Source of the DNA: Bacillota bacterium
GTDB lineage: Bacteria; Bacillota; Proteinivoracia; UBA4975
Direction: 5' to 3'
Length of the DNA: 64,000 bases
Assembly: GCA_012523545.1 (NCBI GenBank)
Contig: JAAYIH010000036.1
Span: 37,978 to 101,977, forward strand
The first letter of the stretch is position 1. Each line of letters opens with the position of its first letter. The position numbers and the translations under genes were made by a program. Below are positions 14,035 through 45,395 of the stretch, one piece after another. The notes beneath the pieces were generated by a model. It was given only the letters and a program-made list of their open reading frames with translations. It did not search any database and was not told the DNA's origin.

Positions 14035-15252
14035 TTGGCCAAGAATCCGTTGATCTGCAGTCTAGATATTGGGACATCAAATACCCGCGCAATTGTTGGA
14101 GAAATTGACCGGGACGGCAATGTCAATATTATCGGCATTGGACAGTGCCAGTCCACGGGTTTAAAAAAAGGGATTATTATAGATATTGATGCAACTGTGC
14201 GGGGGATAGCCGACGCAATCAGCCAGGCCGAACGCATGATAGGCGAGGCTATCACCAGTGTTTTTGTGGCCATCGGCGGTCCCCAAACCAACCTGCTTAA
14301 AAACAGGGGAGTCGTGGCCGTTCACGGCGACGACAGGGAAGTAACCGAAGCAGATGTGGACAGGGTTATTCAGGCTGCCCGGGTGCTGGCCATTCCCCCG
14401 GAACGCGAGATCATAAACGTCAGTCCGATTTCTTACATAGTGGACGGGTATGAAGGCATAAAGGATCCGGTGGGCATGATCGGCGTGCGCCTGGAAGTGG
14501 ATGCGCTGATTGTAACCGGACAGGCCACATATTTGCAAAACATTCGCCGCTGTGTCGAGCGGGCCGGCCTTGAGGTGTCGGGCTTGATTTTTAAGGGCTT
14601 GTCTTCGGGATTCATGGCCTTGTCCCGGGATGAAAGGGAATTGGGGTGCGCCCTTGTCGATATCGGCGGCGGCGTCTCAGAAATCGCCATCTATAAACAC
14701 GACAACTTAATCAGCTTTGCGTCCATTCCCCAGGGCGGCGATCTCATTACCCAGGATTTGGCCCACGGCCTGCGCGTTTCTATGGCCCAGGCGGAGCAGA
14801 TAAAGCAGGTATACGGTGCCGCTACATTCGAGAGTGCCGGCAGCGATGTCATCAGAGTAGAGAGTGTGGGTTCCGCAGCGCCCTATGAAGTGGAATCTGT
14901 TCAGCTGGTTGATTACATCCAACCCCGGGTGGAGGAGATTTTTGATTATATCCGTAACGAGTTGATTCGCGCCGGGTTCAATGAACCTCCGGGCGGCGGG
15001 GTTGTGCTGACAGGGGGAACCTGCCAGTTGCCCGGCCTGCCCGACGTGGCAGCCAGGAAATTGGGCACCAATGTGCGCATTTTTCGCCCTAAACAAATTG
15101 GCGTAACCGATCCCTCGTTTACGGCCAGTACAGCTGTTCTTCAATTCATTGCCCGCCATGACCCGCTGATTTTGCTAAAACCGCAAACCAGGCGTAAGAG
15201 TTCTGCTTGGGGCGACAAAATCAAAGCGCTGATGCGGGATTTGTTTGGCTAG
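14035..15252 (+). CDS. ftsA: Cell division ATPase FtsA
   Basis: LDIGTS, DPVGMIGVRLE, VDIGGG, VVLTGG actin-fold motifs. Confidence 0.95.
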   Translation: MAKNPLICSLDIGTSNTRAIVGEIDRDGNVNIIGIGQCQSTGLKKGIIIDIDATVRGIADAISQAERMIGEAITSVFVAIGGPQTNLLKNRGVVAVHGDDREVTEADVDRVIQAARVLAIPPEREIINVSPISYIVDGYEGIKDPVGMIGVRLEVDALIVTGQATYLQNIRRCVERAGLEVSGLIFKGLSSGFMALSRDERELGCALVDIGGGVSEIAIYKHDNLISFASIPQGGDLITQDLAHGLRVSMAQAEQIKQVYGAATFESAGSDVIRVESVGSAAPYEVESVQLVDYIQPRVEEIFDYIRNELIRAGFNEPPGGGVVLTGGTCQLPGLPDVAARKLGTNVRIFRPKQIGVTDPSFTASTAVLQFIARHDPLILLKPQTRRKSSAWGDKIKALMRDLFG

Positions 15253-15267
15253 GGAGGAGGTGCCCGC

Positions 15268-16317
15268 GTGGCAGATTATTTCGATGTGGATATAGAACAG
15301 TATGCACACATTAAGGTCATCGGTGTCGGCGGCGGCGGCAGCAATGCCGTGAACAGAATGGTGGAAGCCGGCGTCAAGGGCGTCGAGTTTATTGCGGTCA
15401 ATACCGATGCCCAGGCGTTGCACATGTCCTGTGCGGACGTGAAAGTGCAAATCGGCGCCAAGCTTACCAAGGGCCTGGGCGCCGGCGCCAACCCCGAAGT
15501 GGGACGCAAGGCCGCCGAGGAAAGTATCGAAGAACTCAGGAAAAACATCGTCGGGGCCGACATGGTCTTTGTCACTGCAGGAATGGGGGGCGGAACCGGT
15601 ACGGGGGCAGCTCCCATTATTGCCGAACTGGCCAAGGAAGCAGGGGCTCTTACCGTCGGAGTTGTCACCAAGCCCTTTTCCTTTGAAGGGCGGCGACGGG
15701 CGCTGTACGCCGAAAAAGGCATTGAATTGCTGAAATCCAAGGTGGATACCCTCATTGTCATTCCCAACGACCGCTTGTACAAAGTGGTGGATGAACGCAC
15801 TCCCATTGTCGAAGCCTTCCGCATCGCAGATGATGTTTTGCGTCAAGGCGTTCAGGGGCTCTCCGATTTAATCACCACCTCGGGCCTCATCAACCTGGAC
15901 TTTGCCGACGTCAAGACCATCATGCAGGAGACGGGTGCAGCCCTAATGGGCATAGGCAGAGCCAAAGGGGAGTCCAGGGCAGCCGACGCTGCGCGCCAGG
16001 CCATTACCAGCCCGCTGCTGGAGACCTCCATTGACGGGGCCAAAGGAGTGATCCTGAACATTACCGGCGGCGACAACCTCACCATCTATGAGGCCGGTGA
16101 GGCGGCCCGCGTAATTAAAGAGCATGCCGACAAAGACGTCAACCTGATTTACGGACTGGTCATCAATTCCCAGATGCAGGATGAAGTCAGTGTAACGGTG
16201 ATTGCCACCGGTATCGACAGTCCGGCTGAACGCCGGGCGTCAGCCGAGGGCTGGGAACCCACCGAGGAAAATCAGGAGGATATCGACATCCCCGCCTATT
16301 TGCGCAGAAAAAAGTAG
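15268..16317 (+). CDS. ftsZ: Cell division protein FtsZ
   Basis: [26 protein letters not shown]-terminal [11 protein letters not shown]. Confidence 0.99.
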
Positions 16318-40316: not shown

Positions 40317-42167
40317 GTGATCGGCAACAAACTGGTAGACAGATACGAAATACTGGAACGCATTGGTGGCGGCGGCATGGCCGTCGTTTACAAAGCCCGT
40401 TGCACCTTGCTCAATCGCATCGTAGCCATCAAGGTGCTCAGGCAACAATTTGCCGTGGACGAAGACTTTGTCCGGCGGTTTCGCAGAGAAGCTCAGGCCG
40501 CAGCCAGTTTGTCCCACCCCAATATTGTCAGCATCTTTGATGTTGGCCAGGACAACGACACCTATTTCATTGTGATGGAATACGTCGAGGGCGAAACTCT
40601 CAAAGATTTAATTCAGCGGGAGGCTCCGCTGGAGCCGGCCCGGGCTGTGGGCATAGCGCGGCAAATTGCCAACGCCCTGCATCACGCTCATATCAACAAG
40701 ATAATTCACCGGGACATCAAACCCCACAATGTCCTTATCTCCAAGGACGGGCGCATCAAGGTCACCGATTTCGGCATAGCCAGGGCTGTTACCGCCACTA
40801 CCCAGACTTTTTCGCCCCACTCCATCATGGGCTCGGTGCACTACTTTTCGCCGGAACAGGCCAAAGGCAAATTGGCCAGCGAACAGTCGGACATCTATTC
40901 TCTGGGCATCGTCCTGTACGAAATGCTGACCAGGCAGCTGCCCTTTGACGGGGACAGTCCCATCAGTATTGCCCTTAAGCACCTGCAACAGGACATTCCG
41001 CCGGCCAGGAATTACAACCTTAATGTAACCGACAAACTGCAGGACATTCTGGACAGGATGCTGGAAAAGGATCCCGCTTTGCGCTATCAGAATGTCGCCG
41101 AGCTCCAGGCCGATTTGCGGGCATGGAACAGCCAGGATGACAAGGACATGGTCTCTGCGCAATCAGATGAGGATCTGGAAGCGGATATTGCGGAGCATAC
41201 CCGGGTCTTTGCGCCCGTGCCGCAGCAACGCGATAAGAAAAAAGAGTTGCGCGCCAGACTGATCAAATGGGGAGCCATTTGCGGCGCACTTTTCCTGGCG
41301 GTTTATATAAGCATACTCGGGGTGCGTGCTTTAAGCGACATGTTGCGGGTGGAAGAAGTCTATGTGCCCGACGTCACCGGAATGTCTCTGGAGGAGGCCG
41401 CAGCCAGGCTGGAGGAAGCAGGGCTCAGGAATTACCATGTGGCTGCCGAGGTATTCCACGATACAATTCCCGAAAACCACGTGGTAAACCAAAAACCGGC
41501 AGCCCATCAAAAGGTCAAGGAAAACCGGCTCATCGAGCTGACCGTCAGCAAAGGGCCCGACATGGTTGCCGTCCCTTCTTTGGAAGGAAAGGATTTCCGG
41601 GAAGCGGAAAGTGAGCTCATCGCGTTGGGTTTGGAAGCGGAGATTGAGTTTGAATTCAGCGAACGCTATGAATACGGCATTGTGATGCGCCAGGACCCTG
41701 CCACGGGCAAATTGCCCCGTTCCGGCAAAGTGCGTTTGACGGTCAGCAATGGCACACGCCCGATTATTATGGAGGACCTGGTGGGCAAGACCCTGGATGA
41801 GGCTTTAACTATCATTCACCAGTTGATGCTAAGTGAAAGGGTGGTGCGCTGGGAGTCACCCCAGGGTTCTTCGCCGGGAGGTATTGTCACCCGCCATGTT
41901 CCCGAGGCCGGGGAGGAGGTGCGGCCGGGGGACCAGGTCGACCTGTGGGTGCGGCCCTTTAACAGGATCAGCCTCAATGTAGAGCTCAAGGAACTTAAAC
42001 CTGACAGCCAAGTCAGAATCGAAGTCTGGGATATAGCGGCGGACGCCAGGGTGGTTTTTAACGACCGTGTCGGAGATGAAGAGTTCTCCATGACTGTCAG
42101 CGGTTGGGAAAAGGGCAAAATAGTGGTCTATGTCAATGGCGCCAAAATAAAGGAGATTCCCTTCTGA
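40317..42167 (+). CDS. prkC: PASTA-domain Ser/Thr kinase PrkC/PknB
   Basis: IGGGGMAVVY, VAIK, HRDIKPHN, DFGIA, GSVHYFSPEQ, TM, three PASTA repeats. Confidence 0.96.
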   Translation: MIGNKLVDRYEILERIGGGGMAVVYKARCTLLNRIVAIKVLRQQFAVDEDFVRRFRREAQAAASLSHPNIVSIFDVGQDNDTYFIVMEYVEGETLKDLIQREAPLEPARAVGIARQIANALHHAHINKIIHRDIKPHNVLISKDGRIKVTDFGIARAVTATTQTFSPHSIMGSVHYFSPEQAKGKLASEQSDIYSLGIVLYEMLTRQLPFDGDSPISIALKHLQQDIPPARNYNLNVTDKLQDILDRMLEKDPALRYQNVAELQADLRAWNSQDDKDMVSAQSDEDLEADIAEHTRVFAPVPQQRDKKKELRARLIKWGAICGALFLAVYISILGVRALSDMLRVEEVYVPDVTGMSLEEAAARLEEAGLRNYHVAAEVFHDTIPENHVVNQKPAAHQKVKENRLIELTVSKGPDMVAVPSLEGKDFREAESELIALGLEAEIEFEFSERYEYGIVMRQDPATGKLPRSGKVRLTVSNGTRPIIMEDLVGKTLDEALTIIHQLMLSERVVRWESPQGSSPGGIVTRHVPEAGEEVRPGDQVDLWVRPFNRISLNVELKELKPDSQVRIEVWDIAADARVVFNDRVGDEEFSMTVSGWEKGKIVVYVNGAKIKEIPF

Positions 42168-42180
42168 TGCAGGTGATGGG

Positions 42181-43071
42181 ATGAAGGAAGCCACGGGAAT
42201 TGTTGTCAGCGTTGTGGCTGGATACTATTTTGTAGAGCACGGCGACAAGGTTTACCTGTGCCGGGGCAGGGGCCGGCTGCGCCGGGCCGGCGCCAGCCCG
42301 CTGGCCGGGGACATTGTCCGCTTTAATTTTGACAAAGGAGCGGAAACCGGCGTAATCGAGGCCGTTGAACCGCGGCGCAATCAGTTGCAACGGCCGGCGG
42401 TGGCCAACGTCGATGCTGTCGTCGTCGTCCTTGCCCCCCGAAGTCCCCAGCCGGATTTGTACACCGCCGATAAATTGTTGGCCCATCTGTCTTTCCAGGG
42501 TATCCCCGCTGTTGTCTGCGTTAATAAAAGTGACCTGGACCCCGGCGGGGCAGCGAGGTATGCCGAATTGTACCGGAAGGCCGGATACCCTGCTTTGTCC
42601 TGTTCGGCCGAAACGGGGCAAGGTCTGGAACAGCTCAGCGCCTTGCTGGGCGCCCGGACGGTGGTGCTGGCCGGGCAGTCGGGAGTCGGCAAAAGCAAAA
42701 TTACCTCCGCCCTGGCAGTGGGAGAATTGGCTGTTCCCTTGCAAGTCGGCCAGCTCAGTGCCAAAATTGAACGGGGCAGGCAGACTACCCGCCAGGTTTC
42801 TCTGTTGCCCCTTGCTGGCGGCGGCAAAATTGCCGATACGCCCGGTTTCAGCGTATTTGAGCTGGATATGGACAGCCGCGAACTGCACAGGATGTACCCG
42901 GAATTTTTGCGCCATGCTGCCGGCTGCAAGTTTTCCTCTTGCCTGCACATTCATGAACCGGATTGCGCCGTCAAAGAGTATGTGCGCCTGGGAGAAATAG
43001 CTCCCGGCCGGTATAACAATTACCTGCGTATTTATCAGGAATTAAGAGAAAGGGAGGCCCAGCGTTATTAA
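42181..43071 (+). CDS. rsgA: Ribosome small subunit-dependent GTPase RsgA/CpgA
   Basis: RPAVANVD, NKSDL, GQSGVGKS, RQTTR, DTPG, CKFSSCLHIHEPDC. Confidence 0.95.
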   Translation: MKEATGIVVSVVAGYYFVEHGDKVYLCRGRGRLRRAGASPLAGDIVRFNFDKGAETGVIEAVEPRRNQLQRPAVANVDAVVVVLAPRSPQPDLYTADKLLAHLSFQGIPAVVCVNKSDLDPGGAARYAELYRKAGYPALSCSAETGQGLEQLSALLGARTVVLAGQSGVGKSKITSALAVGELAVPLQVGQLSAKIERGRQTTRQVSLLPLAGGGKIADTPGFSVFELDMDSRELHRMYPEFLRHAAGCKFSSCLHIHEPDCAVKEYVRLGEIAPGRYNNYLRIYQELREREAQRY

Positions 43072-43723
43072 ACCACTAGTTTCTGCTTCTGTCCTTGCTG
43101 CCGACCCCCTGCATTTGGGTCGGGATGTGGACTTTATATTGTCTTGTGGGGCTGATTGGCTGCACATTGACGTCATGGACGGCTGTTATGTGCCCAACAT
43201 TACCTTCGGTCCCGACCTGGTCAGGGCCTTGCGCCAAAGGACTGAGGCGCCGTTGGACGTTCATCTCATGATCTGCGAACCTGACCGCTACATACAGACT
43301 TTTGCTCAGGCCGGTGCTGATTATCTTACCGTCCATCCCGAAACGTGCCCTCACCTCCACCGCACTTTGGCCGGCATCCGGCAAGCCGGTTGCAAGGCGG
43401 GAGTGGCCCTCAACCCGGCAACTTCACCCCATGTGCTGGAGTACGTCTGGGATCAGGTGGATTTGGTGCTTCTGATGTCGGTAAATCCGGGTTTTGGCGG
43501 CCAACAGTTTATCGACAGCACCTTGACAAAGTTGAAAGTACTGGCCGAGCGCACAAACCGTTTGCCCGGCCAAGTGTTGCTGGCCATAGATGGAGGGGTC
43601 AATGCAGAGAACAGCCCCGCCCTCGTTGAGGCCGGCATCGACGTGTTGGTGGCCGGCAGCGCAATTTTCCGGAGCCAGGATCCGGCGGCAGTTATCCGTA
43701 CAATGAAGGGGACCGCACTTTAA
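43067..43723 (+). CDS. rpe: Ribulose-phosphate 3-epimerase; apparent non-canonical start (ATT 43067 or GTT 43064)
   Basis: In-frame IKPLVSASVLAAD lies upstream of the first TTG; HIDVMDG..VPNITFG, DVHLMI, MSVNPGFGGQ, IDGGV, VAGSAIF. Confidence 0.92.
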   Translation: MKPLVSASVLAADPLHLGRDVDFILSCGADWLHIDVMDGCYVPNITFGPDLVRALRQRTEAPLDVHLMICEPDRYIQTFAQAGADYLTVHPETCPHLHRTLAGIRQAGCKAGVALNPATSPHVLEYVWDQVDLVLLMSVNPGFGGQQFIDSTLTKLKVLAERTNRLPGQVLLAIDGGVNAENSPALVEAGIDVLVAGSAIFRSQDPAAVIRTMKGTAL

Positions 43724-43752
43724 GTGCGGTCCTTATTCCAAGGGGGATGGCA

Positions 43753-44409
43753 ATGGTTACCCTGGTACTGAACAGTCCCAGCATCGACCGGGCCATGCTG
43801 CGCAAGCTGGCCGCGCGGTCTGTGCTCATAGGAGTTGACGGCGGCCTAAATGCCATTAGGGAAGCGGGCCTCGTTCCCCACTGGGCTGTGGGCGATTTTG
43901 ACTCGGTCCGGCCCGAGTTGCTGGCGCAATTGCCCGGGCGGACCCGCCTGGTGCGGTGCCCGGTGGAAAAGGACTTCACCGACCTGGAGCTGGCGCTGAA
44001 GCTGGCCCTGGCCTGCCGGCCAAAGGAGATATACGTGCTTGGCCTGGGCGGGGGCGTGCGCTTTGACCACCAGGTGGTCAACACCCTAATGCTCGCTGCT
44101 GTCGCTGCAGCGGGATGCAAAATAACTGCCTGGCATGGGGCGCAAAAGCTGGTATTTACCGATTCTGCCGTTTTGCTCCGGGCAAAGCATGGGCGGATGT
44201 TTTCTGTATTTTCCCTGGAGGGAGCAGTTTGCGTAAACATATACGGCGCCAAATATTCCGGCGCCGACATAGTGCTCCGGCCGGGCAGCGGTTACGGCCT
44301 GGGCAACGAAATCAAGGGTTCCCGGGCTGCTGTGGCTGTCAAACGCGGCGTGGCAGTGATTTGCCAATGGGGAACACATTCCGGGCTTTTGCATAGTATG
44401 GAAGCGTAA
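43753..44409 (+). CDS. thiN: Thiamine pyrophosphokinase
   Basis: IGVDGG, VGDFDS, EKDFTDLELAL, RFDH, GLGNE. Confidence 0.92.
   Translation: MVTLVLNSPSIDRAMLRKLAARSVLIGVDGGLNAIREAGLVPHWAVGDFDSVRPELLAQLPGRTRLVRCPVEKDFTDLELALKLALACRPKEIYVLGLGGGVRFDHQVVNTLMLAAVAAAGCKITAWHGAQKLVFTDSAVLLRAKHGRMFSVFSLEGAVCVNIYGAKYSGADIVLRPGSGYGLGNEIKGSRAAVAVKRGVAVICQWGTHSGLLHSMEA
44392..44399 (+). promoter_or_regulatory. Mother-cell sigma (E/K)-like -10 for the small gene-spoVM pair
   Basis: CATAGTAT fits CATAnnnT; the -35 is weak. Confidence 0.35.
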
Positions 44410-44421
44410 GGGGTGATGGCA

Positions 44422-44595
44422 ATGTTGCGCGCCGGGCTGAAGGGGGGAAGGAGGAGCCTGCCCAGGAAGGTTGCCGGCATTGTCCTGGCGGTGGCGGGCA
44501 TTGCTTTAATTGTCAACAATTTGCCGCCGTTTCTGTGGTGGGTATGCCTGGGAACCGCCCTGGTTTTCGCCGGCTGGAGACTATTTACGGTGTGA
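44422..44595 (+). CDS. Small two-TM membrane protein directly upstream of spoVM
   Basis: About 57 aa, basic N-terminus and a helical hairpin (RKVAGIVLAVAGIALIVNNLPPFLWWVCLGTALVFAGW); RBS AAGGGGTG. Confidence 0.65.
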   Translation: MLRAGLKGGRRSLPRKVAGIVLAVAGIALIVNNLPPFLWWVCLGTALVFAGWRLFTV

Positions 44596-44932: not shown

Positions 44933-44961
44933 ATTCTAGCATACGGTGCAGGAATTGGCAA
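44933..44961 (-). promoter_or_regulatory. sigmaA promoter of rpmB
   Basis: Minus strand TTGCCA-N17-TAGAAT with an extended TG. Confidence 0.7.
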
Positions 44962-45035
44962 GGCAAAGGCGGCAGGCTTTTTTTTTGCCTGGATTTATAG
45001 TACAATTAGACTTATGCAAAGGAGGTGTCGAGTGC

Positions 45036-45395
45036 ATGCGTATGGAGACGGAACTGGGGACCATTGAAATTTCCAGCGATGCCATCGCAACTATAGCCGG
45101 AATTGCCGCGGTGGAGTGCTATGGCCTTGTGGGCATGGCTTCGCGCAAGCAACTGAAGGACGGACTGGTGGAGTTGCTGGGGCGGGAAAACTTGAGCCGA
45201 GGCGTCGAAGTCAGGGAGGCTAATGGAGAGCTGATTATCGATTTATATATTATAGTGGGATATGGCACCCGGATTAATGAGGTTGCCAACAATGTCATAT
45301 CCACTGTGAAATATTCCGTTGAAAAGTATACCGGCCTCAGAGTGGGAGAAATCAATGTCAATGTGCAGGGAGTTCGGGTTACCAACGGCAAGTAG
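45036..45395 (+). CDS. yloU: Asp23/Gls24-family protein YloU
   Basis: IATIAGIAAVECYGLVGM, ENLSRGV, IIVGYGT, NVNVQGVRV. Confidence 0.92.
   Translation: MRMETELGTIEISSDAIATIAGIAAVECYGLVGMASRKQLKDGLVELLGRENLSRGVEVREANGELIIDLYIIVGYGTRINEVANNVISTVKYSVEKYTGLRVGEINVNVQGVRVTNGK

Follow-up and report, generated by a model that had tools for sequence, protein, structure and literature searches.

Comparative sequence evidence for a probable AUU initiation codon of rpe that overlaps the rsgA stop codon in a clade of uncultured Bacillota

The rsgA-rpe Junction

The 64-kb stretch of contig JAAYIH010000036.1 analyzed here (the window, 64,000 nucleotides from a Bacillota bacterium, to which all unqualified positions refer) contains an rsgA (cpgA) gene and, overlapping its end on the same strand, the gene rpe for ribulose-phosphate 3-epimerase, which lies in the +1 frame relative to rsgA. 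The earliest ATG, GTG or TTG in the rpe frame after the stop codon that closes this frame upstream (43043-45) is TTG 43115, located 16 codons beyond an ATT triplet that overlaps the rsgA stop codon. Comparison with related sequences makes it very likely that this ATT, at position 43067, is the initiation codon of rpe.

The upstream gene, annotated from the list of open reading frames (ORFs), matches PF03193, PF16745 and TIGR00157 (188.9 bits against a cutoff of 100), and its 3' end reads CGT TAT TAA. After its closing TAA, the rpe frame continues as GAG AAA GGG AGG CCC AGC GTT ATT AAA CCA CTA GTT TCT GCT TCT GTC CTT GCT GCC GAC. The rpe ribosome-binding site, an extended Shine-Dalgarno (SD) sequence, sits within the final rsgA codons; its GGGAGG (43052-57) lies 6 nucleotides (nt) before GTT 43064 and 9 nt before ATT 43067. 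An earlier note on this DNA, which had proposed a non-canonical start for rpe, described the reading frame in the same terms and was right in every detail; the overlap with the rsgA stop codon to which it drew attention (ATTAA) is real and is conserved in relatives. The coordinates of these features are collected in Table 1.

Table 1. Coordinates of the rsgA-rpe junction and of the adjoining genes in the window.
Feature	Positions	Strand	Remarks
rsgA (cpgA) coding sequence	42181..43071	+	296 amino acids, C-terminus ...REREAQRY-stop; ORF list and family matches
TAA closing the rpe frame	43043..43045	+	8 codons 5' of ATT; bars starts further upstream
Extended SD sequence AAAGGGAGG	43049..43057	+	Core GGAGG 43053-57, within rsgA codons E-R-E
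GTT, alternative start candidate	43064..43066	+	Rejected
TAT, terminal Tyr codon of rsgA	43066..43068	+	Supplies the AT with which the rpe ATT begins
ATT, proposed rpe initiation codon	43067..43069	+	Conserved in 12/12 lineages; modal start position
TAA, rsgA stop codon	43069..43071	+	Shares its T with the rpe ATT (third base there); 5-nt overlap (ATTAA)
rpe coding sequence as proposed	43067..43723	+	218 amino acids, ribulose-phosphate 3-epimerase
Codons for the beta-1 motif VSASVLAAD	43079..43105	+	Deleted by any downstream start
TTG, first canonical in-frame start codon	43115..43117	+	Rejected as start
prkC (PASTA Ser/Thr kinase)	40317..42167	+	Upstream operon context; ORF list
thiN (thiamine pyrophosphokinase)	43747..44409	+	Downstream operon context; PF04263, PF04265

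The N-Terminus of Rpe

The product begun at ATT matched the rpe equivalog model TIGR01163 with 270 bits (cutoff 212.6) over model positions 2-211 of 211, and PF00834 with 251.9 bits (cutoff 21.1) over positions 2-198 of 198. Rpe structures in the PDB align from residue 4-5 of this product, in the beta-1 strand, where its VSASVLAAD corresponds to IAPSILSAD; residues H33, D35, H66 and D175, which we take to be the metal ligands on the basis of Rpe structures, are invariant in the alignment of the clade described below. When the product is begun at TTG 43115 instead, the matches to TIGR01163 and PF00834 begin at model position 15 and not at 2, with 13 positions lost, which bears out the statement of the earlier note that such a start would delete beta-1. 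Judged by these alignments, the protein is a ribulose-phosphate 3-epimerase that would form a full-length (beta/alpha)8 barrel only if begun at ATT.

About 160 unrelated rpe loci, obtained by scanning genome contigs with the Rpe protein and metagenome contigs with the clade alignment, served as background; back-translated patterns were too universal, and both scans gave only generic Rpe loci (at most 57% identity) and no close relatives. All of these loci have a canonical start codon 3-15 codons before the motif S-[IV]-L-x-A-D, mostly an ATG at -6 or -7, and the ATT of the window, at -7 from the motif Ser, occupies this modal position. Only eight rpe loci had no canonical start within that 15-codon range, and all eight came from the clade of the window; the other loci of this clade have only non-conserved TTG or ATG codons upstream (L082-L084) or a GTG downstream (L169).

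Conservation of the Junction in an Uncultured Clade

Relatives found by protein search formed about 30 clusters at 58-73% Rpe identity, from metagenome-assembled genomes of uncultured Bacillota and from metagenomes; no cultured member of the clade was seen among the top matches of this search. For 11 clusters the DNA was retrieved by exact-protein contig look-ups and, together with the window, represents 12 distinct lineages (Rpe 58-73% identical, RsgA 58-64% identical, GC content 45-56%). The junction is identical in type in all of them: RsgA ends in E-[KR]-E-A-x-R-Y-stop, written as ...A[AG]GGAGGC....CG[CT] TAT TA[AG], an ATT overlaps the rsgA stop codon (TAA in eight lineages, TAG in four), and the spacer between GGAGG and ATT is exactly 9 nt. 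The rpe frame is closed eight codons upstream, as in the window, in four lineages (L168, L169 and L171 among these). Downstream, the first canonical codons are scattered between lineages (offsets of 4, 8, 9, 16, 17 and 24), and the codons between ATT and TTG are kept as protein across the clade.

The conservation of nucleotides, as distinct from amino acids, was assessed at synonymous sites in all rsgA and rpe alignment columns that hold one amino acid in every lineage (126 columns). A single one of the 42 two-fold columns ending in T or C is codon-invariant, the terminal Tyr of RsgA, with TAT in all 12 lineages; other Tyr columns mix TAT and TAC. Two-fold columns ending in A or G (E, K and Q) likewise include one codon-invariant column in 12, a GAG within the SD sequence, and the four-fold columns include none (0/72). 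Overall codon usage (TAT 64%; GAG 40%; AGG 22% of Arg codons) does not offer an explanation for the Tyr column: a 64% bias cannot account for TAT in 12 of 12 lineages, given that every other Tyr codon varies. By this measure, synonymous sites are saturated across the clade, and the only two nucleotide-level invariants form part of the ribosome-binding site and of the ATT. Because TAT is the sole codon-invariant column of 42, the ATT appears to be conserved beyond the amino-acid demand of RsgA. Together with the independent assemblies considered below, the presence of ATT in 12 of 12 lineages and this synonymous-site invariance support the proposal of the earlier note that rpe has a real non-canonical start.

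The stretch from ATT to the beta-1 motif is one codon longer in lineage L171 (2432-2470; INKFKLSASIL), so insertions and deletions are tolerated in the N-terminal linker, with ATT and the SD sequence staying fixed.

Sequence Correctness and Transcription

When a start codon is absent, the commonest cause a priori is that an original ATG or GTG was misread in sequencing or assembly, or was lost by a recent private mutation. All 31-mers sampled from the region were found in each of 20 public runs, drawn from no fewer than 11 studies of compost, biogas, sludge and digester metagenomes; contigs from four independent metagenome runs, one of them at a depth of 78, are identical over 42950-43250; and a digester metatranscriptome contig (43030-44000), which begins 37 nt before ATT, shows zero differences from the window. 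The earlier note had named a GTG or ATG in the reads or in close relatives as the outcome that would speak for such an error; reads, assemblies and the RNA-seq contig carry ATT, with no GTG or ATG, and its occurrence in all twelve diverged lineages means that it is not a private mutation. An error or private mutation is, on this evidence, extremely improbable.

The RNA-seq contigs overlap across the junction, one reaching back into rsgA (42898-43054) and the other covering 43030-44000, suggesting that rsgA and rpe are co-transcribed; between the two genes, the + strand shows no promoter- or terminator-like site. Digester metatranscriptome contigs from one study carry single-base variants at three positions (G>A 42211, C>G 42879, C>T 43017), all in rsgA; these represent strain-level polymorphism that leaves the SD sequence and ATT untouched.

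Alternative Start Codons and a Possible Frameshift

Gene callers of the Prodigal type predict that Rpe starts at TTG 43115, a legitimate start codon, or at another downstream Met, Val or Leu codon and is N-terminally truncated, and most database entries of the clade have been called in this way (P0001, P0005, P0008, P0013-15, P0017, P0019-29). Initiation at TTG 43115 would give the N-terminus MGRDVDF..., with the N-terminal peptide MGRDVDFILSCGADWLHIDVMDGCYVPNITFGPDLVR. A start of this kind would sacrifice the beta-1 strand (S-[IV]-L-A-A-D) along with 13 positions of TIGR01163 and PF00834; the canonical codon that it requires changes position between lineages (offsets 4 to 24), the best canonical candidate has a weak SD sequence (only -8.4), and the codons from ATT to TTG are conserved as protein. 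A truncated Rpe is thus highly improbable.

The earlier note had considered ATT and GTT side by side as starts; the first of these has held up, with ATT in 12 of 12 lineages, and the second has not. GTT 43064 lies 6 nt from GGGAGG, and for other near-cognate codons close by there is some precedent in the NCBI records of relatives, a few of which use an ATC at -2 or +4. GTT occurs in only 3 of the 12 lineages, the remaining nine having GCT, and the difference tracks the synonymous choice between CGT and CGC for an Arg of rsgA; furthermore, measurable near-cognate activity in Escherichia coli is confined to AUA, AUC, AUU and CUG (1-2%) and does not extend to GUU (10.1101/063800). Of the near-cognate codons at the junction, none but the ATT at position 0 occurs in every lineage without codon variation. 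Initiation at GTT or at another nearby near-cognate codon therefore has very little probability, and GTT 43064, absent from 9 of 12 lineages, was rejected as the rpe start.

The position of rpe in the +1 frame, with a stop codon at the potential shift site and a conserved internal SD sequence upstream, also brings to mind a programmed +1 frameshift as in prfB, by which ribosomes at the end of rsgA would produce an RsgA-Rpe fusion and the SD sequence would act as frameshift stimulator. Frameshifting of the prfB type requires a P-site codon that is able to re-pair in the +1 frame and an SD sequence about 3 nt upstream. At the rsgA end, UAU in the P-site cannot re-pair with tRNA-Tyr in the +1 frame (AUU), and the SD sequence ends 8 nt before UAU, compared with 3 nt in prfB; its 9-nt spacing to AUU corresponds to the optimum for initiation. 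The codon preceding Tyr changes only synonymously (CGC/CGT), and no fused RsgA-Rpe was present among the 120 homologues listed. Lacking both the slippery codon and the SD spacing of prfB, the fusion was rejected on sequence and is most improbable; initiation at ATT remains the preferred reading of the junction.

A scan of the entire window for near-cognate starts with a strong SD sequence gave rpe as the only convincing site without an adjacent canonical codon, and no sign of a general use of near-cognate starts by this genome. The other matches were two trivial cases, with a canonical codon directly following, and one ORF on the minus strand (15178-15867). This ORF of 230 codons has ATC as the first codon after the upstream stop, with a strong SD sequence (-12.7 kcal/mol); its first canonical start is a TTG seven codons in, with a weak SD sequence (-6.6). 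Searches against Pfam and NCBIfam returned no match for it; the ORF may have a second non-canonical start, or may not be a gene.

Proposed Initiation Mechanism and Mutational Lock-In

According to the mechanism proposed here, initiator tRNA would read AUU 43067-69 as a near-cognate codon, and Rpe would begin with Met-Lys-Pro-Leu-Val; the predicted N-terminal peptide is MKPLVSASVLAADPLHLGR, with Met kept before Lys. The strong extended SD sequence AAAGGGAGG, 9 nt upstream in the last rsgA codons, would position the 30S subunit on AUU. Its predicted duplex with the anti-SD sequence has -12.6 kcal/mol in the window and between -12.4 and -17.0 in all 12 lineages, which equals or exceeds the strength at neighbouring genes (mean -11.1). 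Because the last base of AUU is also the first of the rsgA stop codon (AUUAA), ribosomes ending rsgA would be released directly on the rpe start, and part of the initiation would probably proceed by termination-reinitiation; the two genes are co-directional, overlap by 5 nt and appear to lie on one transcript, which is the geometry of termination-reinitiation pairs (gap of at most about 10 nt). Judging from other organisms, the initiation rate is expected to be lower than from AUG, to be partly offset by the strong SD sequence, and to be sensitive to initiation factor 3 (IF3).

The junction would be ancestral to a deep clade of uncultured Bacillota from anaerobic digesters, and would have been kept by selection. 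Given the +1 frame relation of rpe and rsgA, the short overlaps possible are 2, 5 or 8 nt; the 5-nt overlap is barred to ATG, GTG and TTG, because the third base of the start codon is also the first base of the stop codon and no stop codon begins with G. A change of ATT to ATG turns TAA or TAG into GAA or GAG and extends RsgA by 3-90 codons, depending on the lineage, and a GTG at the codon preceding ATT would alter the conserved terminal Tyr of RsgA. Thus, the ATT is probably locked in mutationally by its overlap with the rsgA stop codon, which provides a simple structural reason for the lack of reversion to AUG. Since ATT would be both selected and hard to replace, its age can be explained without invoking regulation. 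In lineage L171, the next stop codon in the rsgA frame after loss of the native one is only three codons further on.

As a caveat, several points weigh against ATT as the start codon or against its coupling to rsgA. NCBI records disagree on the codon, with an ATC two codons upstream in P0139 and an ATC four codons downstream in P0137; lineage L169 has a GTG four codons downstream as a possible alternative start, and other ATC or ATT codons lie nearby in some lineages. Part of the TAT conservation could reflect RsgA, whose terminal Tyr is kept beyond the clade as well (locus L149 ends in KRY-stop). The SD:anti-SD duplex energies given above were calculated with a general Bacillota anti-SD sequence, which may not be that of this organism. 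Only the geometry of the overlap makes a coupling to rsgA termination plausible. A search for conserved RNA structure at the junction yielded only five invariant pairs (-3.7 kcal/mol) and no covariation, and the junction of the window folds less stably than shuffled sequence (z = +1.4); as no conserved structure was found that sequesters the site, a structure-enforced coupling of rsgA and rpe was rejected.

Annotation in Public Databases

The 218-amino-acid product of the window, MKPLVSAS..., is already present in NCBI/nr, so the NCBI annotation already uses ATT; the annotated coding sequence of a relative, NCBI record P0002, starts at the homologous ATT and begins MKPIVSASILAAD. The NCBI record P0012 uses a far-upstream ATG and is read through the SD sequence, and L167 (2549-2570) is among the junctions with conflicting public annotation. 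Most of the N-termini called in the clade are truncated at an internal Met (MGRDV..., MLAADP..., MILEAGA...), and in eight the call extends upstream across K-[RG]-R-[PQ]-x-[AV]-I-[SK], the SD sequence translated in frame; in total, the N-termini are truncated or falsely extended in about 28 of the clade's 30 protein clusters. In practically all members of the clade, rpe is mis-called by gene callers limited to ATG, GTG and TTG. ATT is among the starts permitted in the bacterial genetic code table.

A literature search for an ATT start of rpe found no paper describing one. The new elements are the clade-wide comparative evidence and the lock-in by stop codon overlap; the phenomenon itself, an AUU start, is already known, and the knowledge of initiation is unchanged by the rpe case.

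Two near-identical contigs of the clade, L166 (1900-2559) and L167 (1675-2559), differ in rsgA, which encodes 219 amino acids without the N-terminal domain in the former and 294 amino acids in the latter; this suggests that rsgA of L166 carries a frameshift or an assembly error.

Gene Neighbourhood

The gene order in the relatives is prkC-rsgA-rpe-(thiN)-sORF/rpmB-asp23-fakA, as in the window, where sORF stands for a small ORF. The order prpC-prkC-cpgA(rsgA)-rpe-thiN of the Bacillus subtilis type is common to the window and all relatives, and this prpC-prkC-cpgA neighbourhood with rpe and thiN is Firmicutes-wide (PMC6449344). The only locus outside the clade with an adjacent rsgA, L149, differs from the window in that its rpe has a 24-nt spacer, its own SD sequence and an ATG start. 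A scan of the whole window against Rfam returned no match, so neither an rRNA gene nor a known leader element is present.

The small ORF, of about 57 amino acids (44413-44595, + strand), lies between thiN and the divergent rpmB and is kept in eight relatives at 40-54% identity (for example L081 3862-4035, L165 3826-4002 and L168 4366-4542). It conforms to M-F-R-x-R...LPRKxAG...AVAGIA...P...WW..LG.GL...GWKLFT, a pattern reminiscent of a two-helix membrane hairpin; a Pfam search gave no match. Its true start in the window is probably the ATG that forms the fourth codon of the listed ORF. Further downstream, the listed start of an Asp23-family ORF (44946-45395, + strand) is a GTG whose SD sequence is very weak (-2.4), giving 149 amino acids compared with 119 in relatives; translation probably begins instead at an internal ATG some 30 codons further on (MRMETELG...).

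Rpe Output and 30S Initiation

The earlier note had speculated that the position of rpe behind rsgA could tie Rpe output to the initiation stringency of 30S subunits. Put more broadly, AUU could be an adaptive device by which Rpe is set either by IF3 or the fidelity of 30S initiation or strictly by the ribosomes that finish RsgA, so that pentose-phosphate capacity would be linked to ribosome biogenesis. AUU and AUA starts do make infC, pcnB and ccpN sensitive to IF3 or to the growth medium (10.1101/063800, PMC13009471, PMC2268962), the codon is kept over a deep clade, and RsgA/CpgA has a second, pentose-phosphate-related function: in B. subtilis, it detoxifies the pentose-phosphate by-product 4-phosphoerythronate besides its role as a 30S-assembly GTPase (PMC6449344). 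The pentose-phosphate link makes co-expression with rpe sensible, but is uninformative on the start codon; the conservation of the codon is equally explained by lock-in, in that ATG destroys the rsgA stop codon; and the coupling is not enforced by any conserved RNA structure. Moreover, rsgA and rpe are adjacent elsewhere with an ordinary ATG start (L149), and given this and the Firmicutes-wide neighbourhood, the proposed tie to 30S stringency is unsupported. A regulatory device is therefore unlikely, and it is similarly doubtful that Rpe is made mainly by ribosomes that have just completed RsgA, or only under relaxed IF3 discrimination. If this were nevertheless true, synthesis of RsgA/CpgA would dictate how much of a pentose-phosphate enzyme is made, and the -5 overlap 'ATTAA' would constitute a distinct, selectable coupling geometry, open only to start codons ending in T.

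Comparison with Known Systems

Very few natural AUU starts are established: the literature lists infC and pcnB of E. coli, along with a handful of Staphylococcus aureus genes mapped recently. Within this small group the rpe case is comparatively clean; it concerns a housekeeping enzyme, and AUU and its SD sequence are the only nucleotide-level invariants in two synonymously saturated genes. The AUU starts of infC and pcnB are proven, and are the only confirmed ones in E. coli, where AUU yields 1-2% (0.02-3%) of the AUG output in reporters (10.1101/063800); AUU starts are expected to be IF3-sensitive (PMC2268962). As proposed for rpe, these natural genes begin at an AUU that is read as Met by initiator tRNA. 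They differ in that the AUU of infC is part of a demonstrated autoregulatory loop and that of pcnB limits a toxic enzyme, whereas rpe encodes a housekeeping enzyme of the pentose-phosphate pathway; furthermore, the AUU of rpe overlaps an upstream stop codon, and the rpe start is predicted from sequence.

The conserved starts of S. aureus, which belongs to the same phylum, include cvfC1 (AUU), ccpN (AUA, shared with B. subtilis), infC (AUA) and citZ (AUA); these AUU and AUA starts always have extended SD sequences and reach about 10% (up to 30%) of the AUG output (PMC13009471). The rpe junction resembles them in its conserved near-cognate AUH start with a strong extended SD sequence at proper spacing, and ccpN, like rpe, belongs to central carbon metabolism. 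In contrast to rpe, which is not included among them, the S. aureus starts were mapped by retapamulin ribosome profiling and reporters, and no overlap with an upstream stop codon is described for them.

Finally, termination-reinitiation requires overlaps or very short distances between genes (PMC10666635), and the rsgA-rpe junction shares with the ATGA and TAATG gene pairs (PMC6728339, PMC10666635) an overlap of a few nt on the same strand, an SD sequence inside the upstream gene, and termination on top of the next start codon. The usual overlaps of such pairs are -4, -1 and -8; the rsgA-rpe overlap is -5, which is possible only with a start codon that ends in T.

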